Origin: an uncultured delta proteobacterium
GTDB taxonomy: Bacteria > Desulfobacterota > Syntrophia > Syntrophales > CAMTWB01
Direction: 5' to 3'
Length of the DNA: 64,000 bases
Assembly (NCBI GenBank): GCA_947085375.1
Contig: CAMTWB010000026.1
Coordinates: forward strand, 7,689 to 71,688
This document shows, one piece after another, positions 2,334 through 57,003 of the stretch. Below the pieces are notes generated by a model. It was not told the DNA's origin. It made no database searches and saw only the letters and a program-made list of their open reading frames with translations. Within the stretch, counting starts at the first letter, position 1, and every line of letters starts with the position of its first letter. Both the position numbers and the translations under genes were made by a program.

Positions 2334-3515
2334 ATGGTCCTGCGGTTTTGCTTACGCCCTGAGCCAGAAAGTAAGAGAATTAAATTGACCAGAGAAATTA
2401 AGCTTCTTCAGGGAAACCAGGCCATTGCGGCCGGGGCCATCTATGCCGGGGCCCGTTTCTATGCCGGCTATCCCATCACCCCGTCCTCCGAAATCGCCGA
2501 AGAATGCGCCCGCCTTTTGCCCAAGCTGGGCGGGATTTTCCTGCAGATGGAAGACGAGATCGCCTCCATGGGCGCCATCGTGGGAGCGTCGCTCGCCGGT
2601 GCCAAGGCCTTCACTGCCACCTCCGGCCCAGGGTTTTCCCTCATGCAGGAAAACCTGGGGATGGCCATTATGGGTGAGGTGCCCTGTGTGGTGGTCAACG
2701 TCCAACGCTCCGGCCCCAGCACCGGCCTGGCTACCAAACCGGCCCAGGCGGACATCATGCAGATCCGCTGGGGGCGTCATGGCGACCAGTGCCTGATCGC
2801 ACTTACGCCGTCGACTGTCGCCGAGTGCTTTGCCTTTACCGTCATGGCCTTCAATCTGGCCGAGCGTTACCGGGTGCCGGTAGTACTGGCGCCGGACGAG
2901 GTGGTGGCGCACATGCGGGAAAACGTCATTTTGCCCCTGCCGGGCGAGATTCCGGTTATCGACCGCAAAAAACCGTCCGGGCCGCTTGATGCCTACCTAC
3001 CCTTTACCCCCGACGAAGACGGGATTGCCCCACTTGCGGCCTTCGGCAGCCGCTATGTTTTTCACGTCTCGAGCTCCATGCACGGCCCCGATGGCTACAG
3101 CAACAACAATCCCGCCAACGCCGCCCGCAAGGTGGCCCAGCTGCACACCAAAATCGAGCGGCACAAAAACGATATCGTCAAAACAGTCCTCTTTGACGGC
3201 GAAGACGCCGATATTCTCCTCATTGCCACTGGAATCGTCACCCGGACCTGCCGGGAGGCGGCCCGCCGGCTGCGAAAACGGGGATACAAGGTGGGGGTGC
3301 TCCAGATTATTACCCTCTGGCCTTTTCCGGAAGATGAAATTGCCCGGCTGGGCGGACGGGTGAAAAAAGTTCTGGTGGCCGAAATGAACTACAGCGGTCA
3401 ACTGGCGGGAGAAGTCCGTAAAGTGCTTGGAGCCGACAGCAGGGTGATCCAGGTGAACAAATTCAACGGCGAGATGATTTCGCCCACAGAAATTATTGGG
3501 GCGTTGGACCTCTGA
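2334..3515 (+). CDS. korA: 2-oxoacid:ferredoxin oxidoreductase subunit alpha
   Basis: N-terminal LLQGNQAIAAGAIYAGARFYAGYPITPSSEI is typical of KorA/PorA. An alternative TTG start lies about 50 nt downstream. Confidence 0.9.
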   Translation: MVLRFCLRPEPESKRIKLTREIKLLQGNQAIAAGAIYAGARFYAGYPITPSSEIAEECARLLPKLGGIFLQMEDEIASMGAIVGASLAGAKAFTATSGPGFSLMQENLGMAIMGEVPCVVVNVQRSGPSTGLATKPAQADIMQIRWGRHGDQCLIALTPSTVAECFAFTVMAFNLAERYRVPVVLAPDEVVAHMRENVILPLPGEIPVIDRKKPSGPLDAYLPFTPDEDGIAPLAAFGSRYVFHVSSSMHGPDGYSNNNPANAARKVAQLHTKIERHKNDIVKTVLFDGEDADILLIATGIVTRTCREAARRLRKRGYKVGVLQIITLWPFPEDEIARLGGRVKKVLVAEMNYSGQLAGEVRKVLGADSRVIQVNKFNGEMISPTEIIGALDL

Positions 3516-3550
3516 TCAGGCGGTTCTAAGTTGGAAAAACGTAAGTTAAT

Positions 3551-3683
3551 GGAGGGCTTTGTAAAAAGTTCGCAGGCAAGGCGCGCAAGCCCCCTACCCG
3601 AGGAATGAGGCGTACTTTTTGGTACGTCGCAGTGACGAGGGATGTAGCGCAACGCAGAATCCGGACTTTTTACAAAGCAGTCA
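3551..3683 (-). repeat. K-type TIR-bounded repeat (about 130 bp), inverted copy, between korA and korB
   Basis: Its reverse complement aligns almost base for base with 4549..4675. Ends are GGCTTTGTAAAAAGT ... ACTTTTTACAAAGC. Confidence 0.85.
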
Positions 3684-3723
3684 CCTCTGATCGTAAGTTC
3701 GCCCCCTTGACAAGGAGGATCAA

Positions 3724-4551
3724 TTGTCACATGCAACAGGCACGAGGTACCTCAAGGGAGGAGTGCTGCCGCACATGTGGTGTTCCGGCTGCGGTATCGG
3801 CATCGTCCTTGGCGCCCTGCTTAGGGCCTTTGAAGAACTTGGCTACGAGAAGAACAATACCGTTTTAGTCACCGGCATCGGCTGCACCGGGAAGTCCGAT
3901 GATTATCTGGTAACCAACGCCCTGCACGTAACCCACGGACGGGCGCTTACCTTTGCCACGGGGATCAAGGCCTTCAACCCCTTGTTAAACGTGGTGGTGC
4001 TGATGGGCGATGGCGACGCGGTTACCATTGGCGGCAACCACTTCATCCACTCCGCCCGACGCAACATCGATTTGACGGCAATCGTGGTCAATAATTTCAA
4101 TTATGGCATGACGGGGGGGCAGGTGTCAGGCACCACACCATTTGATCATTTTACGACCACCACCTCCTGGGGCAACCCGGAACGGGGGTTTGATATCTGT
4201 CAGGTGGCCATCGCGGCGGGCGCCAATTATGTTGCCCGTGCCACCACCTATCACGGCTGGGAGATGCAAAATCACTTTCGCGAGGCGCTCGTGAAAAAGG
4301 GATTTTCGGTGGTGGAGGCATTCAGCCCCTGCCCCACCCACTACGGCAAGCACAACGACATGAAAGCCGCCGTCCAAATGTTGCGCTGGCTCAAGGAAAA
4401 GGCTCTGACCATTGATGCCTATAATCAACTTCCGCCTGGCCGCCGCGATGATTACTTCCCCATCGGAAAGCTCAAGGAAGGGGACGCCCCTGATTTCAAC
4501 AGTTGCTATGAGGAAATGCGCCGTAGGGCGCTCCAAGATAACCATGAATGA
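3724..4551 (+). CDS. korB: 2-oxoacid:ferredoxin oxidoreductase subunit beta (TPP-binding)
   Basis: Motifs PHMWCSGCGIG and VVLMGDGDAVTIGGNH. TTG start 5 nt after the AAGGAGG Shine-Dalgarno at 3711-3717. Confidence 0.9.
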   Translation: MSHATGTRYLKGGVLPHMWCSGCGIGIVLGALLRAFEELGYEKNNTVLVTGIGCTGKSDDYLVTNALHVTHGRALTFATGIKAFNPLLNVVVLMGDGDAVTIGGNHFIHSARRNIDLTAIVVNNFNYGMTGGQVSGTTPFDHFTTTTSWGNPERGFDICQVAIAAGANYVARATTYHGWEMQNHFREALVKKGFSVVEAFSPCPTHYGKHNDMKAAVQMLRWLKEKALTIDAYNQLPPGRRDDYFPIGKLKEGDAPDFNSCYEEMRRRALQDNHE

Positions 4552-4675
4552 CGACTTCGTAAAAAGTCCGGATGCGGCGTTGCGTTTCATCCCTCGTCAC
4601 TGCGGCGTACCCAAAAGTACGCCTCATTCCTTGGGATTTACGCGCCTTGCCTGCGAACTCTTTACAAAGCCGTCC
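4549..4675 (+). repeat. K-type TIR-bounded repeat, between korB and korC
   Basis: Starts TGACGACTTCGTAAAAAGT and ends ACTCTTTACAAAGCCGTCC. Inner hairpin GGCGTAC-N6-GTACGCC. The first 3 nt are the korB stop codon. Confidence 0.85.
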
Positions 4676-4712
4676 CCAAACCATCGTTTTCTTAACTTTT
4701 TACGAGTTTGTC

Positions 4713-5267
4713 ATGAATGAGCGCCAAAAGAGTGAAAACAAAGAGCGACATGAGGTCATCCTGGCCGGATCAGGCGGACAGGGCCTGGTCTTAGCGGGGA
4801 TCATCCTGGCTGAGGCCGCGATCCGGGATGGTAAAAACGCCGTCCAGACACAATCCTACGGAATCGCCTCGCGGGGCGGCTTCTCGATGGCGGAGGTGAT
4901 TTGCGACCGCTCCGAGATCATCTATCCCCACGTGGAGGCTCCGGATATGATTCTGGCAATGACCGCAGAAGCCCTGCTGAAATACCGGCATTACCTGGAA
5001 AAAGGCTCCTGGCTGCTCTTTGATTCTACATTGGTTGCTGCCGAGGTCGGTGATAAATGTATCGGCCTGCCCTTGACCAAGATGGCCGATGAATTAGGGC
5101 ATGTCGGCGCGGCCAATATTATCGCCTTAGGCGCCATCGCCGCCGCAACCGCCATGGTAACCCGAGACAGTCTGGAAGCCATTATCACTAGCCGTTTTTC
5201 TCCCCGGGCGAGCGAGGTTAATATCAAAGCTCTGGCCCTGGGGGCGACGAGCTTGACGGCGCGTTAA
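4713..5267 (+). CDS. korC: 2-oxoacid:ferredoxin oxidoreductase subunit gamma
   Basis: EVILAGSGGQGLVLAGIILAEAA is typical of the gamma subunit. I chose the ATG at 4713 because the longer ORF from 4572 reads through the repeat. Confidence 0.85.
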   Translation: MNERQKSENKERHEVILAGSGGQGLVLAGIILAEAAIRDGKNAVQTQSYGIASRGGFSMAEVICDRSEIIYPHVEAPDMILAMTAEALLKYRHYLEKGSWLLFDSTLVAAEVGDKCIGLPLTKMADELGHVGAANIIALGAIAAATAMVTRDSLEAIITSRFSPRASEVNIKALALGATSLTAR

Positions 5268-5286
5268 AAAGTCGCAAAATGATTGC

Positions 5287-5520
5287 TTTCTGAGGCCATG
5301 CTTAAGTCATGGCCGCCTGGTCGTTGTCATTTGCTCGCGCCTACACTATAAAACGGACGAGGCGGAGCTCGTCCCTCCGAGAAGACAATGCCCATAGGTT
5401 TTCCTGGAGCCATGTCCACCGGTTTTTCGGAGGGCCATGCTCCGTCATGGCCGTAAGGCGTTGCCGTTTGCCCGCGCTTACACTATAATGCGGACGCGAC
5501 TTAAGCGCGTCCCTCCGAAA
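5287..5520 (+). repeat. REP/BIME-like P-family repeat, two tandem units
   Basis: Units contain the hairpins GGCCATG-N6-CATGGCC and GGACGAG-N6-CTCGTCC (second unit GGACGCG-N6-CGCGTCC), bracketed by CGGAGGG ... CCCTCCG. Confidence 0.8.
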
Positions 5521-5565
5521 TTGAAAAAGGACGTCCTTTTGCCGCGTCATCAAAAAGGAGTAATC

Positions 5566-7194
5566 ATGTCTCATCACCAGGCCGGGGTCAAAAGCCTTCC
5601 CCCCTGCCGGCAGGCCTGTCCGGCAGGGGTAGATGTCCCCCGTTACATCCGCCAGATCCAGGAAGGCCGTTTCAACGATGCCCGCCTTACCGTCAGGGAG
5701 CGTATTCCTTTTTCCGCGGTCTGCGGTTATGCCTGTCTTCACCCCTGTGAGGCCAGGTGTGCCCGAATCCAGTTCGACGAAACGATTGCCATCCGGATGC
5801 TTAAACTGGCCGCGGAAGAATACGGCAAGATCCAGGCCCGTCCGCCGGAGAAACTTCCCCCCTCGGGCCAAAGGATTGCCATCGTCGGTTCCGGCCCGGG
5901 CGGCCTTACCGCTGCCTATTACCTGGCGAAGATGGGCCATTGCCCCGTCATATTCGAGGCCCGGGAGAAAGCGGGGGGACTCCTGCGTTACGGCATACCC
6001 TCCTACCGCCTCCCCCGGGAGGCCCTTGATCTGGAAATAGACCTCATTCGGGCGCACGGCGTCGAGATTCGCCTCAATACCCCCGTTTTTTCCCCTAAGC
6101 AGCTTTTTGACGATGGTTTCACCGCCGTTCTATTGGCGGTAGGCGCCTGGCAGCCCCTGGGCATGGGCATCCCCGGGGAAGATTCACCCCTGGTGGTGGA
6201 TGGTTTGTCGTTCTTAAGAGCGGTCAATGCCGGCAGCCAGCCCGCAATGGATAGGAAACGAGTCCTGGTGGTGGGCGGAGGAAACACCGCTATCGATGCC
6301 GCAAGATCATCGCGCCGCCTGGGTGCGGAAGCAACCATCCTCTACCGCCGCCGCAGGGAGGATATGCCGGCCAGTGACGAAGAGATCGAGGATGCCCTGG
6401 AGGAAGGTGTTGCGATCATGTCGCACACCCTCCCGGTCGCCGTTTTCGGCCAGGAGGTAACCTGCCAGAAGATGACCGAAGGCCCGCCGGACGCAAGTGG
6501 CCGTCCCACCCCACTGCCCCAGCCGAGAAGCGACTTTATCATAACCGCCGACCTCATCGTTGTTGCCATCGGCCAAAGAGGCATGGCGGCAAAGCTGGCC
6601 GTGGAGGAAACCGGGGGTGGCCGGGTTAAGGTTGATCCGGAGACTTGCGCCACCTCCACCCAGGGCCTTTTTGCCGCCGGCGACGCGGTACTGGGGCCAG
6701 CGAGCATTATCGACGCCATTGCCCAGGGGAGAAAAGCCGCCGCCGCAATCGACAGGTTTCTGGGCGGTGCCGGCAATATCGACCAGGATACACCGGCTAC
6801 CGCAGGAGAAGCACCAGACGCAGTCCCACGGGGGGTTGCCCGGGCTAAAAGGAAAAAGGCGCCGCCACAGGAAAGATTACAAGGCTTTAACCCGGTGGAG
6901 CAGGTGTTTGAGCGGGTGGTCGCAATCGGTGAGGCGGGGCGCTGCCTGTCTTGCGATCTGCGAGACTTTGACGTCAGCGTCAACGATCAACTCTGCAAGG
7001 AATGCGGTTTCTGTCAGGAAGTTTGTTCCTTGAGCGTTTTTGAAACCTCCGATTCCTTCAACGTTCAGGGATACCGGCCGACCCTGGTCAAGAGCGACGC
7101 CCGTTGCATCGGTTGTCTGAGCTGCCTTTACATCTGCCCGGATTTTGCAATCACGATCCGGGATGGGAAAGTGGAGGGCCGAGTAAATAATTGA
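5566..7194 (+). CDS. GltD-family NAD(P)H-dependent oxidoreductase with C-terminal 2x[4Fe-4S] ferredoxin domain
   Basis: N-terminal Cys cluster (CRQACPAG...CGYACLHPCEARC). Dinucleotide folds IAIVGSGPGGLTAAYYL and VLVVGGGNTAIDAA. C-terminal CKECGFCQEVC and CIGCLSCLYICP. ATG at 5566 follows AAAGGAG. Confidence 0.85.
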   Translation: MSHHQAGVKSLPPCRQACPAGVDVPRYIRQIQEGRFNDARLTVRERIPFSAVCGYACLHPCEARCARIQFDETIAIRMLKLAAEEYGKIQARPPEKLPPSGQRIAIVGSGPGGLTAAYYLAKMGHCPVIFEAREKAGGLLRYGIPSYRLPREALDLEIDLIRAHGVEIRLNTPVFSPKQLFDDGFTAVLLAVGAWQPLGMGIPGEDSPLVVDGLSFLRAVNAGSQPAMDRKRVLVVGGGNTAIDAARSSRRLGAEATILYRRRREDMPASDEEIEDALEEGVAIMSHTLPVAVFGQEVTCQKMTEGPPDASGRPTPLPQPRSDFIITADLIVVAIGQRGMAAKLAVEETGGGRVKVDPETCATSTQGLFAAGDAVLGPASIIDAIAQGRKAAAAIDRFLGGAGNIDQDTPATAGEAPDAVPRGVARAKRKKAPPQERLQGFNPVEQVFERVVAIGEAGRCLSCDLRDFDVSVNDQLCKECGFCQEVCSLSVFETSDSFNVQGYRPTLVKSDARCIGCLSCLYICPDFAITIRDGKVEGRVNN

Positions 7195-7364
7195 CGAGGC
7201 GTTAAAAAGTAGAAATACCCCCTCCCCCTGATGGGAGATGGTGCTAGGAGAGGGTGACAATAGTCGATATATCGAATGTTTAAGCCCCCTACCCCCTACC
7301 CCCTACCCCCTCCCCCTGCCCCTCCCGCCGGGGGAGGGGAAATCGGAGTTTTACCGCTTCATCA
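7192..7364 (+). mobile_element. A-type MITE-like element (173 bp)
   Basis: TIRs are TGACGAGGCGTTAAAA ... TTTTACCGCTTCATCA. Internal G/C hairpins include CCCCTCCC-GCCG-GGGAGGGG, with a central palindrome CGATATATCG. No ORF. Near-identical copies elsewhere in the window. Confidence 0.8.
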
Positions 7365-7462
7365 AGGATGTCGTTACGAATAAGGTTACCAGGCGCCTCG
7401 CTATTTTGCTCAAGGCGGGGTTTTGTTTTTCCGGCTATTTTTTAAAAACTAAGGAGGAAACG

Positions 7463-8434
7463 ATGAAAAGGGGTTATTGGGGAACATTTTTTTGCGTGGC
7501 GGCATTTCTCGCGGCTTTATTTCTTGTCGGCAGCGTTTATGCCCAGTCCAGAGTCTTCATCAGTATCGGCACCGGCACTACCGGCGGCTCTTACTATCCC
7601 ATCGGTGGCGCCATGGCCAAAATCTGGAGTGACAAGATTCCCAACATGAGGGCCACCGTCCAGTCCACCGGCGGAACCATCCAGAACATTCAGCTGATGG
7701 CTGACAAACAGACCGAGGCCGGATTTACCGACACCAGGTACGTATTTGCTTTTCGGGGTCGGGGCCTCCAGTTTGAGGGCAAGCCTCAGACCTGGCTCCG
7801 GGGCCTGGTGCCGCTCTATCCAGAGCCGACCAATATCGTGGTTTTGAAGGATTCGGGAATCAGGACCCTGGCCGATCTTAGGGGAAAGCGGGTTTCGATC
7901 GGCGCGGTCGGCAGCGGTACCGAGGCGACTGCCCGGGAGCTATTCGGCATCCTGGGAATTGACGTGGCCAAAGATATCCGGCCGTTTATGCTGGGGACTG
8001 GCGAGACGGCAAGCGCCTTCCAGGATAAGAGAATCGATGCGGCCATTTTAGTGGGGTCCTTGGGCATGTCTTCAGTGGTGGAGATTACCTCCCTGGGCCT
8101 TGTTGACTTCCTTGAAGTTGATGATGCCACTTTCCGGGCCTTAAAGAGGGTCAATGAAACCTGGGTGCAGTTTTCGATCCCGGCCAATTTCTACAAGAAC
8201 CAGCCCCGCCCAATAAGAACCTACGCCAGCTTCAACATCCTGTCGGTTCGAGAAGACCTGCCCGAAGAGCTGGCCTATCAAATGACCAAAACACTTTTTG
8301 AAAACAAGGCCGATTTAGTAGCGGTAAGAGCTACGATGGAAAACATGACTCTTGAAAATGTCCATAAGATTGAAATTCCCGTCCATCCCGGAGCGGCACG
8401 TTACTATCGGGAAATGGGGGTCAGGGTGCACTAA
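7463..8434 (+). CDS. TAXI-family TRAP transporter solute receptor
   Basis: Signal peptide followed by ISIGTGTTGGSYYPIGGAMAKIW, typical of TAXI receptors. ATG 7463 follows AAGGAGG. The longer ORF from 7238 translates the MITE. Confidence 0.85.
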   Translation: MKRGYWGTFFCVAAFLAALFLVGSVYAQSRVFISIGTGTTGGSYYPIGGAMAKIWSDKIPNMRATVQSTGGTIQNIQLMADKQTEAGFTDTRYVFAFRGRGLQFEGKPQTWLRGLVPLYPEPTNIVVLKDSGIRTLADLRGKRVSIGAVGSGTEATARELFGILGIDVAKDIRPFMLGTGETASAFQDKRIDAAILVGSLGMSSVVEITSLGLVDFLEVDDATFRALKRVNETWVQFSIPANFYKNQPRPIRTYASFNILSVREDLPEELAYQMTKTLFENKADLVAVRATMENMTLENVHKIEIPVHPGAARYYREMGVRVH

Positions 8435-11818: not shown

Positions 11819-12107
11819 AGTAAGGGCGGTGTTACCTAAGAAGAGATGCCGCCCTTCGATTAAGGTGAACTGGGATGTTCGGCCCGAAGCCTGCTTCACC
11901 ACCTTGGAGAAAGCGGATAACTCATTTGCTACTAAACCGGACATATCTATTTGCTGCTAACAGGAGCTAAGAAAAACGAGAAACAATGTGTCTGCACCGC
12001 CTCGGTGCGACAATGGGTTGCCCACATTTTTGTCGCAAAGCCGCATCTTTATGAACTTGACTTTACCGACGGCGCTGTTATTATGCCTCCCAACCAGAGG
12101 CTATTCA

Positions 12108-16359: not shown

Positions 16360-16457
16360 TGACGACTTCATCAAATATGATGAAGCGGCAAAAAGTCCGA
16401 TCTCCCCTCTCCTGGTGGGAGGGGCAGTGGGAGGGGGTTTTGACTTTTTACACTGAG
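16360..16457 (+). repeat. TIR fragments plus half A-type element
   Basis: TGACGACTTCATCA-AATA-TGATGAAGCGGCAAAAAGT..., then CCCCTCTCC-TGGT-GGGAGGGG, ending GACTTTTTACACTG. Confidence 0.6.
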
Positions 16458-16458
16458 A

Positions 16459-16606
16459 CAATTGCAGAAGTCTCAAAAATTTCCTCTCCCCTTCAAGGGA
16501 GAGGGTTTTAGGTGAGGGGGGAATAATAAGTATAATCTATAGATTTTATCACACCCTCCCCTTAATTTCCTCCCATAAAGGGAGGGGAAACAGACTTTTG
16601 CAATTG
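16459..16606 (+). mobile_element. MITE-like element with distinct TIR (CAATTGCAGAAGTCT / AGACTTTTGCAATTG)
   Basis: 15-bp imperfect TIRs. Internal hairpins CCTCTCCCC-TTCAA-GGGAGAGG and CCTCCC-ATAAA-GGGAGG. No ORF. Confidence 0.65.
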
Positions 16607-17756: not shown

Positions 17757-17789
17757 GGTTTTTCGGAGGGCCATGCTCAGTCATAGCCG
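17757..17789 (+). repeat. P-family REP singlet
   Basis: GGTTTTTCGGAGGGCCATGCTCAGTCATAGCCG, which is the first hairpin of the P unit only. Confidence 0.6.
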
Positions 17790-17800
17790 CATTAGACTGA

Positions 17801-18835
17801 CTATTTGCCTAACTGATCCTTTATTTTTCGGCGATCTTGAATTGCCTTGGACACCCTTCCTAAGGCGGCGGTAATTTTATCATCCGGCTTAGTAAGGAGC
17901 CGATCGGATTTCCGGTAGAGATCCAGGGCCTGCTCCAGGTCTCCTGTTATCTCCGAACATATGCCCAGATCGTAGAGCAGGGCGGCAGTAGGCTGGGAGA
18001 GCGCCCGGGCCTCGCCCCAGAGCTCACAGGCGCGGTCAAGACGGTTATTTTTGGCAAACTCCAGCCCCTGCTTGAATAGTCTTTCCGCCTCCCGGGAAGT
18101 CATGCCGTCGGTGGAATCCATCAGTTGCACCGAAACGGTAACATAATGGGGAGCGACATCAGCCCTGAAACTATGCTTTGCCTGCTGTTTGGCCTGCTCA
18201 AGCAGTTCGCTATGGCTGACCAATGGTCTGGGACTGTCCTCACAGGCAGACGATCTGGCTGTACCGGAAATATTGCTTGCATAGACGATGCGTCCCGTTT
18301 CAACCTCCAGCAATTTTGGCGTGGCCGCAAAAGAAGCGACCCGGGATGTACAGGAAACGTTGTATTTTACCCAGCGGACGCATTCTCTATATTCTTTCCC
18401 CTTTTCATTCTTTTTCGTTACTTCTGAGGCACAGCGGGTACGTTCTTCCTGGTAACGGTTGTCGTTACTGCGTGATAAAGTGATGCTGCCTGTATAAATG
18501 CCCCGGGCGCCAACCAGTTTGCCGAGCCGGGCGACATTGCCCGGGTCCATCAGAGCGCTTTGGGAGAAATTCAACTCTTCGATCAGCCGGTCGATTTTTG
18601 TTCGGTCGACCAGGGAAAAATACTGGCGGTCGCCGATATTAATTCCGGCTAATGTGCCTTCTATTTCAGCAGCAAAGTTTTTTCCTCCGGGTCCATCAAA
18701 GGGCAAAACGGCGACTTCCTTCAGTAGGGAAGCCTCGTGTGCCCTGGCCGGTAAAAGAGCGGTGGTTTTAAGGCTTGGGGGGGCGCAGCCTAAAAGTGCA
18801 GACACAATAAGTATGAGGGCAATTATGATTCTCAC
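17801..18835 (-). CDS. CsgG/LpoB-like lipoprotein with C-terminal TPR-like helices
   Basis: GTG at 18835 lies 9 nt after GGAGG. Lipobox LLGC. VAVLPFDG...LVDRTKIDRLIEELNFSQS...LGKLVGARGIYTGSIT resembles CsgG-family lipoproteins. The ATG at 19012 would bury the signal peptide at residue 60. Confidence 0.6.
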   Translation of the reverse strand: MRIIIALILIVSALLGCAPPSLKTTALLPARAHEASLLKEVAVLPFDGPGGKNFAAEIEGTLAGINIGDRQYFSLVDRTKIDRLIEELNFSQSALMDPGNVARLGKLVGARGIYTGSITLSRSNDNRYQEERTRCASEVTKKNEKGKEYRECVRWVKYNVSCTSRVASFAATPKLLEVETGRIVYASNISGTARSSACEDSPRPLVSHSELLEQAKQQAKHSFRADVAPHYVTVSVQLMDSTDGMTSREAERLFKQGLEFAKNNRLDRACELWGEARALSQPTAALLYDLGICSEITGDLEQALDLYRKSDRLLTKPDDKITAALGRVSKAIQDRRKIKDQLGK

Positions 18836-19436: not shown

Positions 19437-20231
19437 ATGGATTTAGCCACAATTCTTGGAATCATCAGCGGTTTTTCATTGGTCATCATTGCCATGGGAG
19501 CAGGTGGCGGCATTGGCTGGTTCATCAACGGGCCTTCGGCGATGATAGTCCTGGGAGGAACCTTGGGGGCAATACTTATAAATTATCCCCTGCGCGACTT
19601 GCTGGGTGTGCTCAAGGTCGCAAAAAACGTTTTTTTATCAAAATTGCCGCGAGAAAAAGAGATCGTAGCGGCTATTATATTCATGGCCCGCCATACCAGG
19701 CGCAACGGTATCTTATCTATTGAATCTGCAATGAATGACAAGGGTTTCGATCCCTGGCTGAAAAAAGCTCTCATGTTGGTGGTCGATGGGCTGGATCAAA
19801 AGGACATCAAAAATATATTGCGAACAGAGATCAATTTTATTGAAGAGAGGCACCGCCTGGGTGCGGAAATTTTTACCAGCATGGGCAACTTCGCGCCGGC
19901 AATGGGTATGATGGGCACTCTTATCGGATTGGTTAAAATGCTGATGTATATGAATGATCCAGCGAATATTGGCCCTTCCATGGCCGTGGCTTTAGTAACA
20001 ACTTTCTATGGGGTAATTTTGGCTAACCTAGTATTTCTGCCAATTGCGGGTAAACTAAAAAACATGAGTTCTCAGGAGCTGTTGATCAAACAATTGATCC
20101 TTCAGGGCGTGCTATCGATACAGTCAGGAGACAATCCTCAAATCTTGGAAGAAAAATTAAATTCCTTCATCTCACCCGGCGAAAGACGCAGGCAAACTGC
20201 TTCAGGGGTAGGTAATGATCAAAGACAATAG
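19437..20231 (+). CDS. motA: flagellar stator protein MotA
   Basis: 264 aa, four TM segments, MotA/TolQ/ExbB channel motif GPSMAVALVTTFYGVILANLVFLPIAGKL. Confidence 0.9.
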   Translation: MDLATILGIISGFSLVIIAMGAGGGIGWFINGPSAMIVLGGTLGAILINYPLRDLLGVLKVAKNVFLSKLPREKEIVAAIIFMARHTRRNGILSIESAMNDKGFDPWLKKALMLVVDGLDQKDIKNILRTEINFIEERHRLGAEIFTSMGNFAPAMGMMGTLIGLVKMLMYMNDPANIGPSMAVALVTTFYGVILANLVFLPIAGKLKNMSSQELLIKQLILQGVLSIQSGDNPQILEEKLNSFISPGERRRQTASGVGNDQRQ

Positions 20232-20901
20232 GAGCGACAGTGATTATTGGCAGACTATATACTGCGCTTTAATGCTCATTATCGTCGCTTTTTTTATGTT
20301 TCTGATATCAGTTTCCAAATTGGAGAAAGCCAAGCTTAAAAGCTTTACTGATACATATAGGTCAGATGCCATTGTCACAGCGACAAGGCAGCAACTGGAG
20401 ACAAATGACGGCCAGCTGATAAATGATGCACTTTTTAACCAACTCGGCGGGAGGTTGGATGCAATACTGGAGAATACCGGTTATAAAGGTGCGGTTGGAT
20501 TGGAACGCGTCCCCGGAGGCATTAAGGCAACTATTATTTCTGAGCTTCTGTTCGAATCGGCAACAGCGCACCTAAAAAGAGACTTCCTGGCTGTGCTTGA
20601 TGAAATTTCCAATATTGCCAAGGAATCAGAATTAAGTCTCGCAATAGAAGGGCATACTGATAATCAAGCGATTATATCAGATAAATACCCATCAAACTGG
20701 GAATTATCCACTGCCCGCGCCGTAAGCTTATTAAAGTATTTTTTGGAGTCCGGCGGAATTCCTCCAGAGAGGCTCCGCGCTGCCGGTTTTGGCCAATACC
20801 GGCCTATCGCAGATAATGAGACGCCAGAGGGCCGAAAAAAGAATCGCCGCGCAGAACTTTATCTCTTCCCTGCTTCTGTCAACCACAAGACGAATAATTA
20901 A
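20215..20901 (+). CDS. MotB-like OmpA-domain protein lacking the channel Asp
   Basis: TM segment WQTIYCALMLIIVAFF aligns to MotB WxxxYADxMTxxxxFF but has Ala (GCT 20266-20268) in place of Asp. Intact OmpA-like C-terminus EGHTDN...NRRAELYL. Confidence 0.8.
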   Translation: MIKDNRSDSDYWQTIYCALMLIIVAFFMFLISVSKLEKAKLKSFTDTYRSDAIVTATRQQLETNDGQLINDALFNQLGGRLDAILENTGYKGAVGLERVPGGIKATIISELLFESATAHLKRDFLAVLDEISNIAKESELSLAIEGHTDNQAIISDKYPSNWELSTARAVSLLKYFLESGGIPPERLRAAGFGQYRPIADNETPEGRKKNRRAELYLFPASVNHKTNN

Positions 20902-20907
20902 CCTCTT

Positions 20908-21636
20908 ATGAGCAATAAAAGACTGCCGATACCGTCAAATCAAAAAACATGGTTAATTACATTCAATGATCTGATTACGTTACTTTTGACTTTTTTTGTT
21001 CTGATACTATCTTTGTCTTCTATTAACGCCGAGGGGCTGCGGAGGATGTCCTCTTCGCTGCAAGAGTCAATTCTCGGGCTTCGGGGCGATAAGAAAGTTC
21101 AGGTATTTGAGCCTTTCGTCAGGAATTTGGAAGATGAAGATATTGCAAAAAATAAACAAGCTGACATTATAAAAAGGGAATTAGCGGCCAATGAACTGCA
21201 GCAGAAACTGGCGGAACAATTTGCTGAGTCTGTTAGCGGTGTAAAGGGTATGGAGGTTAAGAAGGAGGGTCAAGGGATCATAATTTCTTTACCCGACTCG
21301 TTGCTTTTTGCATCGGGAAGCGCGGAAGTAAAGAAAAAGAATGGAGTTATTCGCTTACTTGCTGATAATATTCGAACGATCAATGCCCAAATTACTATTG
21401 AGGGTCATACTGACGATGTACCTGTTGTTAGCAATACCTACCCCTCGAACTGGGAATTGTCGATGGCAAGGGCCGTGAATATCTTGAAACTTCTAATAAG
21501 TGAAGGTGGCATCGATCCCGCCCGCTTATCGGCAGCAGGTTATGCGCATACCCGTCCCCTAGCCCCCAATGATTCAGCCCCCGGAAGAAAAGCTAACCGG
21601 CGGGTAAATATTCTACTAACTATCGAAAATATATGA
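20908..21636 (+). CDS. motB: flagellar stator protein MotB
   Basis: WLITFNDLITLLLTFF with the conserved Asp. OmpA-like EGHTDD...NRRVNILL. Confidence 0.85.
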   Translation: MSNKRLPIPSNQKTWLITFNDLITLLLTFFVLILSLSSINAEGLRRMSSSLQESILGLRGDKKVQVFEPFVRNLEDEDIAKNKQADIIKRELAANELQQKLAEQFAESVSGVKGMEVKKEGQGIIISLPDSLLFASGSAEVKKKNGVIRLLADNIRTINAQITIEGHTDDVPVVSNTYPSNWELSMARAVNILKLLISEGGIDPARLSAAGYAHTRPLAPNDSAPGRKANRRVNILLTIENI

Positions 21637-21644
21637 GGTGAGCA

Positions 21645-22133
21645 ATGGCTAATAAGAATAGCGAAGACAAGACGGCAGCAACCCCGGCGGCGGTAAAAAA
21701 ACCTGCTTGGAAATTGGCGCTAATTATCTTTCTGGCCCTGATTGTGCTAGGCGGAATTGGTTTTGCAGCGTATGAATTCGTTTTGAAGAAAGGATTGCCG
21801 GAAAAGCAGGCGAAAAAGGAATCTTCAATTACAAGTGCAATTTGGTCGATGGATCCCTTTGTGGTTAATCTGCTTGATAATCATGGAGGAAGATATCTCA
21901 AGGTTGTGATCCAATTGGAAATTCAGGATGATAAGACCTTGCCTGAGTTCAATGCCAGTAAGCCCAGACTCAGAGATGCTGTCATTGATCTAATTTCGGC
22001 CAAATCTTACAAAGAGTTGATGGAACCAGGCGGCAAGCAGCAACTTCGGGACGAACTTCTCCTTAGACTCAATGCCAACCTAAAAGAAGGGAAGGTTGCA
22101 AAGATATATTTTACTGAGTTTATTATTCAATAG
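21645..22133 (+). CDS. fliL: flagellar basal-body-associated protein FliL
   Basis: Single TM segment, then FVVNLLDNHGGRYLKVVIQLE...KIYFTEFIIQ, the typical FliL signature. Confidence 0.85.
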   Translation: MANKNSEDKTAATPAAVKKPAWKLALIIFLALIVLGGIGFAAYEFVLKKGLPEKQAKKESSITSAIWSMDPFVVNLLDNHGGRYLKVVIQLEIQDDKTLPEFNASKPRLRDAVIDLISAKSYKELMEPGGKQQLRDELLLRLNANLKEGKVAKIYFTEFIIQ

Positions 22134-22157
22134 TATCGTTTGCCAGGAAGAAGCATT

Positions 22158-23150
22158 ATGGCCGGTATATTGTCACAGGAAGAAGTCGATGCCTTGATTC
22201 ATGGGTTGAACGAAGGGAAACTTCCGGCAGATGCTAAGGAGGACTCTTCAGGAGTCAAGCCCTACGATCTTACCACTCACGAGAGGATCATCAGGGGCAA
22301 AATGCCTACCCTGGAGATCATCAACGAGAAATTTGCTCGTTTGTTCCGGACGACAATGCAATCAATGCTCCGCCGGGTTATAAATGTCACCACTCTGGCT
22401 ACATCCGTGATCAAATTTCAAGACTATTTGAAAACCTTGCCGGTGCCTTCCAGCATACAGGTTATCAAGCTCGAGCCGTTGCGAGGGAGCGCTATTTTAG
22501 TCATAGATTCAAAGCTGATATTCACATTTATTGACATAATACTAGGTGGCACAGGGAAGACTCCTTACAAGGTAGAGGGTCGTGAATTCTCCGCTATTGA
22601 AAATAATATCATCAGAAGGATCATCGACAGATCCTTGACAGATTTTGAAAATGCCTGGAGTTATGTCATAAACTTAACCGCGACCTACCAGAAAACTGAA
22701 ATCAATCCCCAGTTTTGCCTGATAACACTCCCAACAGATCCTGTCGTTATTATTACATTTTTAATTGAGATGGAACATTCATCGGGCAAGATGACCATCT
22801 GTATTCCCTACACCAACCTGGAGCCTTTGAGAGAAAAATTGACCAGCCGATTTCAAGGTGAACAGTCGGATAATGACTTGCTGTGGGCAACAAGATTAAA
22901 AGCGGGCCTGATGCTTGCAAGTATAAATGTGGCAGCAGAAGCCGGGAAGGTCACTATTGCCGGACGAGATCTCGTAAGCTTAAAAAAGGGCGACGTTATT
23001 ATCCTAGATAAGCACTGCAATGATTTCTTTGACGTCCTTGTCGAAGGGAGCGTTAAATTCAAGGGTATCCCGGGAATTTACAAAGGCAGTAATGCCATTC
23101 AAATATCTCATATCGTGGGCCAGGGTGAGGTAATCGAACATGGAGATTAG
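22158..23150 (+). CDS. fliM: flagellar motor switch protein FliM
   Basis: N-terminal LSQEEVDALI (CheY-P binding motif region). Size and C-terminal SpoA-like domain. ATG 22158 preferred over TTG 22140. Confidence 0.9.
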   Translation: MAGILSQEEVDALIHGLNEGKLPADAKEDSSGVKPYDLTTHERIIRGKMPTLEIINEKFARLFRTTMQSMLRRVINVTTLATSVIKFQDYLKTLPVPSSIQVIKLEPLRGSAILVIDSKLIFTFIDIILGGTGKTPYKVEGREFSAIENNIIRRIIDRSLTDFENAWSYVINLTATYQKTEINPQFCLITLPTDPVVIITFLIEMEHSSGKMTICIPYTNLEPLREKLTSRFQGEQSDNDLLWATRLKAGLMLASINVAAEAGKVTIAGRDLVSLKKGDVIILDKHCNDFFDVLVEGSVKFKGIPGIYKGSNAIQISHIVGQGEVIEHGD

Positions 23151-23583
23151 AAAAGACCAACAGGAAGAAAATAATCGTTCGCAAGGCAAACCGGTCAATA
23201 ACGAGGAGGTTGCAGATGTTGATTGGGAAGAAGCCTTCCGGGAAGAAGAGCAAAGTACAAAAAAAACAGAGGTTTCCCCGGTTCAATTTTCGGAATTAAA
23301 AAAAAGCGTTACCCCTTCCGGAGCACTTGATTTTGATTTCATTCTTGAAATACCCCTGAACCTCACTGTTGAGCTAGGCAGAAATAAGATGCTTATTCGA
23401 GAGCTTCTCCAGCTTGGCCAGGGTTCCGTAATCGAATTGACAAAGATGGCTGGCGAGCCGATGGATATTTTTGTCAACAATAGACTGATTGCTCGTGGGG
23501 AGGTGGTGGTCGTCAACGAGAAGTTCGGCATCAGGCTGACGGACATCATATCTCCCGAGGAAAGGATCAACTATTTAAAGTAA
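23140..23583 (+). CDS. fliN: flagellar motor switch protein FliN
   Basis: C-terminal SpoA domain LTVELGRNKMLIRELLQLGQGSVIELTKMAGEPMDIFVNNRLIARGEVVVVNEKFGIRLTDI. Confidence 0.9.
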   Translation: MEIRKDQQEENNRSQGKPVNNEEVADVDWEEAFREEEQSTKKTEVSPVQFSELKKSVTPSGALDFDFILEIPLNLTVELGRNKMLIRELLQLGQGSVIELTKMAGEPMDIFVNNRLIARGEVVVVNEKFGIRLTDIISPEERINYLK

Positions 23584-23597
23584 CGCAGTAACTACAT

Positions 23598-23759
23598 TGA
23601 CGAGGCGGTAAAAACTCCCATTTCCCCTCTCCCGGTGGGAGGGGGCAGGGGGAGGGGGTAGGGGGCTTAAACATTCGATATATCGACTATTATCACCCTC
23701 TCCTAGAACCCTCTTACATCAAGGGAGAGGGGGTCTTTCTACTTTTTACCGCATCATCA
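23598..23759 (-). mobile_element. A-type MITE-like element (inverted orientation) between fliN and fliO
   Basis: TGACGAGGCGGTAAAAACT ... ACTTTTTACCGCATCATCA. Its reverse complement aligns with 7192..7364. Confidence 0.8.
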
Positions 23760-23780
23760 GCATTTACCGGAGGACAATAA

Positions 23781-24170
23781 TTGGAACCGGTGTCACTAGC
23801 CTCAGCCTTTTGGAACATGCTGGCGGCCCTGGCCGTTGTATTGTTAATTTTAATTCTCACCATGTTTGTGTTTCAAAAGCTTCTCAAACAAAAAATGCCC
23901 ATCAAAGACGATGGTGCAATTATAAATATAATAAGCGTCCGTTATTTAGGACCAAAAAATTCACTCCTGCTGGTTGATGTTTTGGGGAAGCCAATATTAA
24001 TCAGCATTTCCAATCAGCAGGTGTCATATTTGACCACCCTTGACGACGAAGTATCCATTCAGAAGTTAAAAGCAATCAACAATACACAAAAAAGCCATCC
24101 CCTAGACAGAGGATTACTTTCTCGCTGTCGGGATTTTGTTTTATTTAAGGCTCCGGGAAAGGATAGTTAG
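23781..24170 (+). CDS. fliO: flagellar biosynthesis protein FliO
   Basis: 129 aa with a single N-terminal TM segment, located between fliN and fliP. TTG start 5 nt after GGAGG. Confidence 0.7.
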   Translation: MEPVSLASAFWNMLAALAVVLLILILTMFVFQKLLKQKMPIKDDGAIINIISVRYLGPKNSLLLVDVLGKPILISISNQQVSYLTTLDDEVSIQKLKAINNTQKSHPLDRGLLSRCRDFVLFKAPGKDS

Positions 24171-24952
24171 TGCCAATGGGTCGTCCTAAAACTAAGTCAC
24201 CCAACCTTTATCTGGCTGCCCTGCTGCTGACGGTGCTATTTTGCTTTCCCGTGACGTTAGCATTTGCCCAGCCTGCCGCCCCCCATATCAACCTGACAAT
24301 TTCGGGCGCCGAGGGCGATCCAGAACGGGTCTCGATTACTTTGCAGCTTCTCATCCTCTTGACCGTATTGTCGATTGCGCCCGCGATCCTCCTGATGCTG
24401 ACATCCTTCACCCGCATTATTGTTGTTCTTTCAATATTAAAACACGCGCTCGGCACCCAGCAGCTGCCTCCCGCTCAGGTTATTGTTGGATTGGCCTTGT
24501 TTTTAACTTTCTTTATCATGACCCCCGTATGGCAACAGGTGTACAAGGAGGCCTTCCAACCCTATTATGAGGAAAAAATAACCGGTCAGGAAGCCCTGGA
24601 ACAGGCTACGCTTCCCATTAAAGGATTTATGCTCAAGCATTCCCGGGAAAAAGATATCGCCTTGTTTGTAAAGATGGCCAAGCAGGAACGGCCGGAAAAG
24701 CCGTCCGATCTGTCTCTGACGGTACTGATACCGGCCTTTGTCATCAGTGAATTAAAAACCGCATTTCAAATAGGTTTTATGATTTACCTGCCCTTTTTGG
24801 TAATTGACATGGTTGTTGCAAGCATTCTTTTGTCGATGGGAATGCTGATGCTGCCGCCAATCATGATCAGCCTGCCTTTCAAGTTGCTGCTTTTTGTTTT
24901 GGTTGATGGCTGGCATTTGATAATTTCATCGTTAGTTCAAAGTTTTCAATAA
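24170..24952 (+). CDS. fliP: flagellar export apparatus protein FliP
   Basis: LTSFTRIIVVLSILKHALGTQQLPP and PAFVISELKTAFQIGFMIYLPFLVIDMVVASILLSMGM are FliP signatures. Confidence 0.95.
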   Translation: MPMGRPKTKSPNLYLAALLLTVLFCFPVTLAFAQPAAPHINLTISGAEGDPERVSITLQLLILLTVLSIAPAILLMLTSFTRIIVVLSILKHALGTQQLPPAQVIVGLALFLTFFIMTPVWQQVYKEAFQPYYEEKITGQEALEQATLPIKGFMLKHSREKDIALFVKMAKQERPEKPSDLSLTVLIPAFVISELKTAFQIGFMIYLPFLVIDMVVASILLSMGMLMLPPIMISLPFKLLLFVLVDGWHLIISSLVQSFQ

Positions 24953-24977
24953 TCGACCTCTTGCCAAAGGCAAACAA

Positions 24978-25247
24978 ATGTCTGCAGATTTAGTTGTCGG
25001 TTTAATGGCGCAAACCGTCAAAATTACGTTACTCGTATCGGCGCCGGCATTGCTGGTTGGCTTAATCGTGGGACTTCTGATAAGCTTGGTGCAGGCGGTC
25101 ACTCAAGTTCAAGAGATGACACTGGTTTTCGTGCCGAAGATTATTGCCGTCATGTTCACCCTTATTGTGGCGCTCCCTTGGATGATTAACCTCCTTCTCA
25201 CCTTTACTCACAATCTTTATTCTAATATTCCACTGTATATAAAGTGA
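24978..25247 (+). CDS. fliQ: flagellar export apparatus protein FliQ
   Basis: 89 aa with the motif LISLVQAVTQVQEMTLVFVPKI. Confidence 0.95.
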   Translation: MSADLVVGLMAQTVKITLLVSAPALLVGLIVGLLISLVQAVTQVQEMTLVFVPKIIAVMFTLIVALPWMINLLLTFTHNLYSNIPLYIK

Positions 25248-26023
25248 TCTCAATTCCAGATCCGGCACAACTTGAACTCCTGTTTCTGATCTTTCTTCGA
25301 ATAAGCGCCATGTTTATAATGATCCCCCTTTTTGGTGAACGAACCGTCCCGGTTCGGGTTAAGGCGGGGTTATCCATTATTTTGACTTTAATTATTTTCC
25401 CCCTTATCCCAGCATCTTCATTGCCAGCCATCAGTGAAAATACTCTTGTTTTATTCATGAAAATTGCCGGTGAAGTAATGATCGGATTATTGATCGGCTT
25501 AATCGGCCGTTTCATCTTTGTTGGCATTCAGCTTTGCGGTCAGATCATTGGTTTCCAGATGGGTTTTGCCATCGCCAATATTGTCGACCCAGTCACCAGT
25601 ACCCAGGTTTCGATTATTGCGGAGCTCTATTATCTGATCGCAATCCTCCTTTTTTTGACTTTTGATATGCACCAGGTATTCATTGCGGCGATAGTGGAAA
25701 GTTTTTCAATAATTCCGCCTTATGGCTTTCGAATGAAGGGGGAGATTGCCCAGGCGCTGGTTGTTTATTCGTCGAATTTATTTCTTGTAGCAGTCAAAAT
25801 TGGCGCCCCAGTAATCGCTGCTTTAACGCTCCTGAATGTATCGCTTGCTATAATCGCCCGGACAGTTCCCCAGATTAATATCTTCATCGTTGGATTTCCG
25901 CTGCAAATTATGACCGGACTTCTTTTTATTGGCCTGGGATCTGCTATGTTTACCGTGGGCATTGATAAATTATTCAACCAGATGGCTGGGCAAATCATGA
26001 CCATGCTGCGGCTTGTGCCTTAA
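25244..26023 (+). CDS. fliR: flagellar export apparatus protein FliR
   Basis: 259 aa polytopic protein located between fliQ and flhB. Motif GFPLQIMTGLLFIG. Confidence 0.9.
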   Translation: MISIPDPAQLELLFLIFLRISAMFIMIPLFGERTVPVRVKAGLSIILTLIIFPLIPASSLPAISENTLVLFMKIAGEVMIGLLIGLIGRFIFVGIQLCGQIIGFQMGFAIANIVDPVTSTQVSIIAELYYLIAILLFLTFDMHQVFIAAIVESFSIIPPYGFRMKGEIAQALVVYSSNLFLVAVKIGAPVIAALTLLNVSLAIIARTVPQINIFIVGFPLQIMTGLLFIGLGSAMFTVGIDKLFNQMAGQIMTMLRLVP

Positions 26024-26132
26024 GAAGCAACTGCTCAGGTGGATAGACTGAAGGCGGAAGGCTTAACACTAGAGCAGTTATTCCGTTAGCATATTTATTG
26101 ACGCTTCGTCATATATTTGAAAGGTCCCGCCA

Positions 26133-27227: not shown

Positions 27228-27228
27228 T

Positions 27229-29289: not shown

Positions 29290-29291
29290 AG

Positions 29292-30449: not shown

Positions 30450-30463
30450 TCAAAAAGCAGATA

Positions 30464-30630
30464 TGATGACACTGTAAAAAGTCAAAAGACCCCCGCTCCC
30501 TTGATGGGAGAGGGTTCTAGGAGAGGGTGATAATAGTTGATATATCGAATGTTTGATCCCCCTCCCCCTCCCCCTGCCCCTGCCCCCTCCCACTGGGGGA
30601 GGGGGAATCGGAGTTTTTACCGCGTCATCA
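30464..30630 (+). mobile_element. A-type MITE-like element between flhF and flhG
   Basis: TGATGACACTGTAAAAAGT ... GTTTTTACCGCGTCATCA. The interior aligns with 7192..7364. Confidence 0.8.
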
Positions 30631-30635
30631 AATAT

Positions 30636-30734: not shown

Positions 30735-30737
30735 GAC

Positions 30738-55857: not shown

Positions 55858-57003
55858 TCAATCCTTTACCTTATAGTTATTTCCCGGCAGTTTCAGAATC
55901 AGCCCTTGGAGTTCCAGGGATAAAAGGCCCGGCTGAAGGGAAGAGAGGGCAATTCCGCTGGCTGCTGCCAGTTCGTCAATATGGAGGGGCTTGAGGGACA
56001 AAAGTTTCAGTATTGCCGACTGCGCAGGATCCATTGTTGAAAACTCAGGGAGGGGAGTGGGTTTGTCGGGATTAGTTAATTCAGAATTCTTTTTTGCGGC
56101 GAAAATGACAGGGGGCGTCTGATTGGAAATCTGCGGCAATATCTCGGCGATAATATCACGGGCAGATTCCACCAGCCTGGCTCCATCGCGGATTAACTTA
56201 TGAGTTCCCCGGGATCCGGAGGCGTCAATTGCCCCGGGCACGGCAAAGACCTCCCGTCCCTGTTCAAGGGCGAATCGAGCAGTGATGAGGGAGCCGCTTT
56301 TGTCGCCCGCCTCAACGACTACGACTCCATAGGACATGCCGCTGATGATCCGATTTCTGGCGGGGAAATTAAGCCGGTGCGGTGGTGTGCCCAACGGGTA
56401 TTCGGAGATAATTGCCCCCTGTTCGGGAATCAATTCATAGAGGCGGGAATTTTCCGGGGGATAGACAATGTCTATGCCGCAACCCAGAACCGCAATGGTG
56501 CGACCACGGGCCGACAAGGCCCCGCGGTGTGCAGCGGAGTCTATCCCCCGGGCCAAGCCGCTAACGACGGTTATTCCGCTTAAGGCCAACTCCCGGCTGA
56601 GCTTTTCTGTGGTGAACCGGCCATAGGGGCTAGCCAGCCGCGAGCCCACCAGGGCAATGGCTATCTCGCCTGCTGTAAGAGTTCCTTTCACGTAGAGAAA
56701 GGGAGGGAAGTCGTAAATTTGCAGCAGATTTTGCGGATATAGCGGGTCCTGGCAGGTCACCAGACATGAACGGAATTTTTCGAGCTGCTTAAGCTCGTTT
56801 TCGGCCTTGTCCCACTGGTCAAAGGCCAGAATCTGCCGTGCCGTGACTTCGCCTATTGCCGGAATGGCTGTTAAGCGGTGCAATGATGATTTGAATACCT
56901 GCCGGGGACTGCCCAGCGCGTCCAGCAGGTTGCGGAAAACGGTGTTTCCCACCCCGGGGACGGCTTTCAGGGCGATCCAGCAAGCAAGATCATGATGTTC
57001 CAT
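55858..57003 (-). CDS. dprA: DNA-processing protein DprA
   Basis: IALVGSRLASPYG...VVSGLARGIDSAAHRGAL...TIAVLGCGIDIVYPPEN is the DprA Rossmann-like core. Confidence 0.9.
   Translation of the reverse strand: MEHHDLACWIALKAVPGVGNTVFRNLLDALGSPRQVFKSSLHRLTAIPAIGEVTARQILAFDQWDKAENELKQLEKFRSCLVTCQDPLYPQNLLQIYDFPPFLYVKGTLTAGEIAIALVGSRLASPYGRFTTEKLSRELALSGITVVSGLARGIDSAAHRGALSARGRTIAVLGCGIDIVYPPENSRLYELIPEQGAIISEYPLGTPPHRLNFPARNRIISGMSYGVVVVEAGDKSGSLITARFALEQGREVFAVPGAIDASGSRGTHKLIRDGARLVESARDIIAEILPQISNQTPPVIFAAKKNSELTNPDKPTPLPEFSTMDPAQSAILKLLSLKPLHIDELAAASGIALSSLQPGLLSLELQGLILKLPGNNYKVKD

Follow-up and report, generated by a model that had tools for sequence, protein, structure and literature searches.

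Short non-coding elements sharing a 20-bp inverted-repeat end in a Syntrophales genome, and a candidate IS1182-like transposase

What are the short non-coding repeats that lie between the genes of a 64,000-nucleotide stretch of DNA from an uncultured delta proteobacterium of the Syntrophales (GenBank assembly GCA_947085375.1, contig CAMTWB010000026.1, positions 7,689 to 71,688; the whole stretch is called the window here), and why do repeats with unrelated interiors end in nearly the same sequence? [quoted passage not shown] The window is a housekeeping chromosomal segment, with a 2-oxoacid:ferredoxin oxidoreductase (POR) operon, a TAXI-TRAP transporter, alr, a flagellar cluster, topA and aspS, and the relatives of its AspS belong to the Smithellaceae or Syntrophales. 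The repeats are real, and comparison with related genomes supports their reading as MITEs inserted between the genes of a Smithellaceae genome. They are probably derived from a DNA transposon and moved in trans by the IS1182-like DDE transposase of a 1959-bp insertion sequence (IS).

The common end of these elements reads TGAYGA-N4-GTAAAAAGT(C), and about 12 elements or fragments in the 64-kb window carry it. The terminus of the A-type elements, TGAYGARGCGKTAAAA, is matched 11 times with at most two mismatches, against 0.42 expected from dinucleotide-preserving shuffles of the window, while the motif TGACGA-N4-GTAAAAAGT (pattern TGACGANNNNGTAAAAAGT) is matched 14 times against 0.05 expected; neither observed count was attained in any shuffle. 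The terminal inverted repeat (TIR) of about 20 bp is TGAYGRNNTCGTAAAAAGTC, with the blocks TGAYG and GTAAAAAGTC, and both sides of every full copy show ends of 19–20 nt. The N4 differs by family, being CTTY in the K elements and NGCG or CACT in the A elements, and the terminus scans bear out the earlier observation that K elements end in nearly the A-type repeat. Together with the third interior type, X, the window thus holds several MITE families with one common end, as had been proposed. The elements measure 82–299 bp in the window and 107–317 bp in metagenome copies, and the open reading frames (ORFs) that overlap the window elements are only extensions of flanking genes. As the motif is short and A-rich, its recurrence could be ascribed to chance or low-complexity likeness among unrelated repeats. 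This reading is already refuted by the 14 matches that no shuffle equals, by the pairing of the ends in inverted orientation at a spacing of 100–300 nt, and by the identical 19-mer, with duplications, on the metagenome contigs described below.

The insertion of these elements is visible where relatives lack them. Two metagenome-assembled genomes (MAGs; GCA_964457235.1 and GCA_037441775.1), which are 78–86% identical to the window at the nucleotide level in the flanking genes, were used for comparison. The POR operon of GCA_037441775.1 (L135) is collinear with that of the window. At the alpha/beta junction, a 43-bp gap in L135 is replaced in the window by a K element on the minus strand (3550–3683); at the beta/gamma junction, genes that overlap in L135 are separated by a plus-strand K element (4549–4713); at the junction of gamma with a GltD-like oxidoreductase gene, a 2-bp gap is replaced by the plus-strand X element of about 300 bp (5254–5552); and between the GltD-like gene and a TAXI TRAP binding-protein gene, where L135 has a gap of about 160 bp, lies a plus-strand A element (7192–7364). 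Accordingly, blastn matches between the window and L135 are interrupted at 3503/3698, 4549/4740, 5252/5555 and 7194/7424, around the four elements. A fifth site is provided by hisS and aspS, which overlap (...AATTGATAAAGGAATGACTTGTGACTGA...) in both MAGs (loci L006 and L008). In the window, this junction has about 215 extra nucleotides, consisting of a minus-strand A element (63767–63908) and an adjoining partial unit (63711–63756) of an unrelated repeat, R, and the HisS frame extends about 30 codons into the element. Five gene junctions, four in the POR operon and one at hisS/aspS, carry an insertion in the window that relatives lack, which supplies the presence/absence polymorphism that the earlier note had called for. 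With at most two mismatches the terminus is matched 18 times in the window and once in 60 kb of the relatives; that one match lies within coding sequence, so that no genuine terminus was found in those 60 kb. In the flagellar cluster, a distant relative (L130) has a flhF–flhG gap of 109 bp, compared with about 290 bp in the window, and overlapping flhG and fliA genes. Since the FlhA relatives are only 70% identical, alignment of the flagellar intergenic regions gives gap sizes and not exact empty sites.

The beta/gamma junction also defines the target-site duplication (TSD). TGAA occurs exactly at 4545–4548 and again at 4714–4717, on either side of the K element. The empty site in L135 reads CATGAATAGG, with TGAA in single copy, and the window reads CCATGAA[TGACGAC...TTTGTCA]TGAATGAG, a net gain of 169 nt made up of the 165-nt element and 4 nt of duplication. 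Because TGAA is present on both sides in the window and once in L135, the element is flanked by a 4-bp TSD. The earlier note, which had seen no obvious duplication, is corrected on this point. It had also recognised the K copies but ended this one at position 4675. The copy is of a long type, in which the K core is followed by a spacer of about 20 nt and a second, functional right end, and it is this outer end, at 4713, that yields the TSD while the inner end does not. Metagenome elements of the same type, with both inner and outer right ends present, likewise show a duplication with the outer end only. Both genes survive the insertion: the TGA of the element serves as the beta stop codon, and the gamma gene regains an ATG from the last A of the element and the adjoining TG of the TSD.

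Alignment of flanks on a larger scale gave the same result. Among the metagenome matches listed, an exact flanking direct repeat of at least 4 bp was found for 45 of 72 candidate end pairs (35 of 4 bp and 10 of 5 bp), compared with about 2.3 of 72 expected after random exchange of the right flanks between elements. Of the 49 duplication-bearing elements among those matches, 41 have A at −5 and 46 have T at +5, so that the target reads A-NNNN-T. Their right ends, on which the search pattern had placed no constraint, give the consensus TGAYGRNYTCGTAAAAAGTC. Within the window, three of the four flank positions agree at the A elements 23598–23759 (ACAT/GCAT) and 30464–30630, and, the exact K 4549–4713 apart, the flanks of the remaining copies are mismatched. 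This fits the age of the copies, which are 75–89% identical to one another; they are old, their duplications have mostly decayed, and most have simply lost the TSD by divergence.

These features suggest a mechanism in which the elements descend from a DNA transposon as short, non-coding forms that have retained nothing of it but the TIR of about 20 bp. A DDE transposase supplied in trans would bind both ends, excise or copy the element and insert it at A-NNNN-T with a 4-bp staggered cut, whose repair would leave the 4-bp duplication. Elements that start with TGA and end with TCA often provide a stop codon for the upstream gene and leave the start codon of the downstream gene intact.

A different origin could be sought in host-maintained, structured intergenic repeats of the REP/BIME or ERIC-like kind, which would serve to stabilise mRNA, to terminate transcription or to bind proteins and would be spread by a REP-associated tyrosine transposase (RAYT) or by recombination. 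The elements do fold well: z-scores against shuffled sequence are −5.2 for A 30464 and −4.5 for K 4549, and the termini pair as a closing stem. They also lie inside operons and mix modules in a mosaic fashion, and across ten K copies from different sources the long hairpin is kept, with compensatory changes in 7 of 31 pairs. This covariation is modest, as a palindromic MITE would show. The TIRs with exact 4-bp duplications, by contrast, are a DDE-type signature, and an insertion sequence with the same ends exists. The elements may point with transcription (7192, forward) or against it (23598, reverse), the syntenic sites in relatives are empty at no apparent cost, and Rfam returned only tRNAs at gathering thresholds and nothing at E ≤ 1 over 3400–7500. 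The two orientations, the empty sites and the lack of an Rfam match make a purely regulatory-RNA or REP/RAYT reading unlikely, and we give host-maintained repeats as the origin of the elements very little credence, though the elements may have secondary effects on operon mRNAs.

How far does the superfamily extend? A metagenome scan with the exact 19-mer terminus TGACGAMYTCGTAAAAAGT matched at least 120 contigs, and 70 of the 121 matches listed have an inverted partner terminus within 77–358 nt. When window elements and listed metagenome elements are clustered, the interiors fall into a K cluster of 26, among them the three K copies of the window, a family of 17 elements of 135 bp composed of GTCATTCC...GGAATGAC hairpins, and several singletons outside the clusters. 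An A cluster of eight comprises the four window copies, one copy from another MAG and three metagenome copies. The MAG copy, in a genome labelled actinobacterium, was the sole match to a 23-base A-core pattern in a collection that holds one genome per GTDB species and does not include the source genome. The A-core pattern had no matches in the first metagenome scan, which points to a lineage-restricted A family. Copies are thus not confined to the window, one of the outcomes by which the earlier note could have failed. A 15-base version of the terminus gave only single, noise-like matches among those listed for viral contigs, a search of plasmids with a K element found nothing, and a literature search with the terminus string returned unrelated papers only. 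The superfamily defined by this 20-base end is apparently large and undescribed. In some metagenome K elements (L148, L174, L200; L177, L255), small palindromic modules are nested at constant places: the central loop holds GGGGACACGTTCCG...CGGAACATGTCCCC, and another module is CCCTGTTAAAT...ATTTAACAGGG. This suggests that K elements are the target of further, very small mobile hairpins.

In the window itself, no transposase was found among the ORFs examined, not every one of which was scanned against protein families; to this extent the earlier claim that the window encodes none is upheld. A full-length element with matching TIRs is present in an unrelated metagenome contig (L202). It is 1959 bp long, with left end TGACGAACTCGTAAAAAGTC and right end GACTTTTTACGAGGCTGTCA, is bounded by inverted repeats of 19–20 nt, and contains one ORF (positions 4–1938, about 619 aa) for a putative DDE transposase. 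At its left end it has exactly the 19-mer that the MITEs carry. The predicted product has domain-level Pfam matches, each above cutoff, to DUF772, DDE_Tnp_1 and DDE_Tnp_1_6, and its best NCBIfam match is the IS1182 model NF033551 (residues 64–556, E = 2.5e-38, 132 bits against a cutoff of 270). Related copies, L197 and L240, are 86% and 79% identical to L202 and begin at the same T at other sites. By tblastn, the closest annotated relatives of the transposase are IS1182 family transposases with 23–27% identity. The closest relative overall, with 36% identity, belongs to an unannotated element on plasmid pMVF16-1 of Microvirga sp. VF16 (414896–416715; L258), the record of which is nearly without annotation. 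This element is about 1.8 kb long and has 36-nt inverted repeats with the inner part GACGGGGCGGTAAAAAGTCGAT and a 9-bp flanking repeat, ATGGAGTGG; its outer boundary and the 9-bp repeat rest on one copy. It links this transposase clade to the end motif a second time and independently. A search of viral contigs with the L202 transposase found nothing. Two further loci taken up as long elements, L153 (2083 bp) and L249 (2504 bp), each turned out to be a pair of distinct MITEs on either side of ordinary genes.

The enzyme that moves the MITEs would most likely be this IS1182-like transposase, and several points weigh against that attribution or against the mechanism outlined above. The candidate enzyme and its full-length element are known from metagenome contigs, outside the genome of the source organism, and the GC content of L202 is 62%, compared with about 51% for the window. 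Only one complete autonomous copy was recovered, and its flanks, CGAG and CGTC, form no clean duplication. The IS1182 score lies below the NCBI cutoff, so that the family assignment is loose, and in the Microvirga relative the inverted repeat measures 36 nt and the flanking repeat 9 bp, rather than 20 nt and 4 bp. Within the window, an exact duplication accompanies only one of about nine complete copies, and a direct repeat of about 16 nt around the K element 3550–3683 is unexplained by a 4-bp stagger. Finally, a 4-bp TSD with T...A ends is formally indistinguishable from a 6-bp ANNNNT TSD with G...C ends. That an enzyme of the L202 type, or an orthologue in the source genome, moves the window copies, and how it would cut, we infer from sequence. 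The idea in the earlier note of mobilisation by one transposase has a similar footing, since the L202 element comes from an unrelated contig and we infer a common enzyme from the shared termini.

TG...CA ends with a 4-bp duplication are not unique to one IS family; several enzymes of the IS3, IS5 and IS481 types have TG...CA ends and short duplications. The MITEs could therefore be moved by a transposase of another family of this sort, with L202 merely sharing their terminus, and both the recovery of a single full-length element without a clean duplication and the origin of the candidate enzyme outside the source genome leave room for such a view. It has to reckon, however, with the identity of the L202 left end and the MITE 19-mer, with the three related IS copies that begin at one and the same base, and with the Microvirga transposase, which at 36% identity is also flanked by the GGTAAAAAGTC motif. 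Moreover, no other transposase gene starting beside the terminus was seen among the loci listed. We therefore regard a transposase of another family as unlikely and retain the IS1182-like enzyme as the probable agent.

The four full A copies of the window, at 7192–7364, 23598–23759, 30464–30630 and 63767–63908, can be aligned end to end and are 75–87% alike. The earlier note's description of their interiors, with G/C-tract hairpins and a central palindrome, was accurate; the palindrome, TCGATATATCGA, is exact in two copies and has one or two changes in the other two. The copy at 7192–7364 has no mismatches at either terminus, and its own TGA provides the upstream ORF (5437..7194) with a stop codon. 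The copy at 23598–23759 is on the minus strand, inverted with respect to the flanking plus-strand flagellar genes, and that at 30464–30630 is on the plus strand at the flhF/flhG junction. The latter is separated by the spacer AATAT from a plus-strand long-type K element with an internal deletion (30636–30734), which has the architecture of 4549–4713, clusters with the K family and ends 4 nt 5' of the flhG ATG. A half copy noted earlier at 33805–33865 is a truncated A element on the minus strand that retains only the right half; positions 1090–1152 of locus L005 align to it at 83%. The region around 16360–16457 had been taken for fragments, which is correct for part of it: on the plus strand, the 14-nt abutted ends at 16360–16373 (TGACGACTTCATCA) are a remnant, and after a 4-nt spacer they are followed by a short but complete A-derived element of 82 nt (16378–16459; 16360–16459 in all), which has a degenerate right end and to which L005 aligns at 76% over 16378–16438. 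Elements abut both at 30630–30636 (TCATCA-AATAT-TGACGA) and at 16373–16378 (TCATCA-AATA-TGATGA), with spacers of 4–5 nt. Such a spacer meets the A-NNNN-T target of both neighbours, and insertion beside an existing copy may thus be favoured.

Of the remaining members, the K element at 3550–3683, of the K-core type, has degenerate ends, TGGAGGGCTTTGTAAAAAGT and TGACTGCTTTGTAAAAAGT, and is 89% complementary to 4549–4635; the direct repeat that flanks it (CCTCTGATC..GTAAGTT) is not a clean TSD. A terminus scan allowing three mismatches, combined with direct reading of the sequence, added three members to those of the earlier note. The X element (5254–5552), with termini TGACGGCGCGTTAAAAAGT and TGATGACGCGGCAAAAGGA, encloses two units of the R repeat, and the TAA stop codon of the POR gamma ORF lies within its left terminus. 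A solo or collapsed end on the plus strand at the flhG/fliA junction (31580–31604) has TGACGA fused to CTTTTTACGAGTTTGACC, and its TGA is the flhG stop codon. The third is a solo terminus, TGAGGACCTCGTCAAAAGT, on the minus strand (57028–57046), upstream of a minus-strand gene (55858..57003).

Other repeats and irregularities share the window with the MITEs. The R family has units of about 125–140 nt with inverted ends GGTTTTTCGGAGGG and CCCTCCGAAAAACC and internal hairpins GGCCATG..CATGGCC and GGACGAG..CTCGTCC. Copies lie at 49835–50224 (three tandem units), 35927–36101, 45769–45849, 17757–17802 and 63711–63756 and inside 5282–5520; on both sides of the partial copy at hisS/aspS lies a direct repeat of about 12 nt (AAAAGGCGAGGTAT / AAAAAGAGGTAT). 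R differs from A and K in that it also occurs in the 78–85%-identical relative (L135, about 6170–6215). A third repeat family, of about 175 nt, is represented by an inverted pair with 84% identity (52130–52309 and 58677–58855), is bounded by TGCGACAAA-N-TGGGTA and TACCCACATTTTTGTCGCA, contains G/C-tract hairpins and has a 32-nt palindromic solo version at 12006–12037. Free-standing G/C-tract hairpins (CCCCCCCTTT..AAAGGGGGG and CCTCTCCCC..GGGAGAGG) are found at 41725–41800, 52166–52202, 58703–58739, 16480–16600 and 57165–57205. As they resemble the modules of A, the hairpins may be separate units that A carries. Between a three-tRNA cluster and the neighbouring gene, about 660 nt (59186–59848) take the place of about 33 nt in L006 and L008 and hold a broken ORF for an AbrB/MazE-like antitoxin; this is probably the remnant of an element integrated beside tRNAs. 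The flagellar block (about 20000–36000) has a GC content of 0.44–0.48, compared with 0.51–0.57 in the rest of the window, and the database relatives of its FlhA do not exceed 70% identity, while for AspS there are relatives at 85%. It may represent a flagellar island that has diverged or been acquired.

In the source lineage, the elements explain swollen intergenic regions and breaks in short-read assemblies every few kilobases: the Logan assemblies of the source organism consist of short contigs ending inside repeats, including the A elements 7192–7364 and 63767–63908. The gene ends of HisS, POR beta/gamma, the GltD-like protein and FlhG are partly transposon-derived, which matters for the annotation of MAGs, and insertions at overlapping-gene junctions that leave both frames intact show how operons tolerate mobile DNA. 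The conserved 20-bp end, the A-NNNN-T target and the candidate transposase together provide a usable marker, which could be entered in IS and MITE databases and serve to flag related elements in genomes of the Desulfobacterota type. A far-reaching extension, which we think improbable as a whole, would be a widespread carrier system, defined by the 20-bp terminus, in bacteria of anaerobic sediments and digesters. In it, a single transposase clade would spread unrelated modules (G/C-tract, GTCATTCC...GGAATGAC and K hairpins, R units) and prefer operon junctions, with TGA...TCA ends at A-NNNN-T that preserve stop and start codons. Some interiors, above all that of K, which is conserved in many metagenomes with compensatory changes, would have been co-opted as cis-acting RNA that tunes expression in operons.

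How do these elements compare with known systems? Like the BIMEs of Escherichia coli and the Correia or NIME elements of Neisseria, they are modular assemblies of small hairpin units located between the genes of operons. BIMEs and REPs, whose hallmark is a conserved tetranucleotide followed by a short imperfect palindrome, lack both TIRs and duplications and rely on RAYT tyrosine transposases, and Correia elements duplicate TA; the present elements differ in having 20-nt TIRs and 4-bp duplications. The GTCATTCCNG...CNGGAATGAC hairpins of one metagenome family presumably resemble neisserial dRS3-type repeats. What was found here is what is expected of MITEs: small non-coding units with TIRs and a TSD, dispersed copies with insertion polymorphism, and an autonomous element that shares their ends, though not in the same genome.

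Members of the IS1182 family have a single ORF, about 1.3–2 kb of length and inverted repeats in the ISfinder description, which the size and layout of L202 (1959 bp, one ORF, inverted repeats) fit. L202 resembles this family in its single long ORF, its DUF772, DDE_Tnp_1 and DDE_Tnp_1_6 domains and its best NCBIfam match, and departs from it in scoring 132 rather than 270 bits and in its 23–27% identity to annotated members. Judged by these similarities, the L202 transposase would be a distant branch of IS1182 or a member of a neighbouring unclassified (ISNCY-type) group. IS1182 is not mentioned in a 2024 review of prokaryotic MITEs.

In the former deltaproteobacteria, the MITE Chunjie from Geobacter uraniireducens Rf4 measures 178–235 bp and is A+T-rich, with inverted repeats of 21 bp and direct repeats of 9 bp (Chen et al. 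2008, as summarised in PMC3184786 and PMC10969869). Like the present elements, it leaves operons intact, forms very stable hairpins and sometimes overlaps gene ends. Going by the descriptions in reviews, it differs in its 9-bp rather than 4-bp duplication and in an A+T-rich rather than G/C-rich interior; the two are different families.

The closest precedent is the set of MITEs related to ISMac2, an IS1182-family element of Methanosarcina acetivorans, which are 160–169 bp long with 4-bp direct repeats and 25–26-nt inverted repeats (Kamoun et al. 2013, PMC3852290). These too are short, non-coding and multi-copy, with TIRs, a 4-bp repeat and a presumed IS1182-family transposase. The comparison is one of descriptions rather than sequences, and by it the ISMac2 MITEs differ in their archaeal host and longer repeats, whereas the superfamily described here is marked by a 20-nt end and by A-NNNN-T as target, and its many interior families are spread across environmental bacteria. 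The superfamily is thus new and widespread, while the kind of element is known and its mechanism is not surprising.

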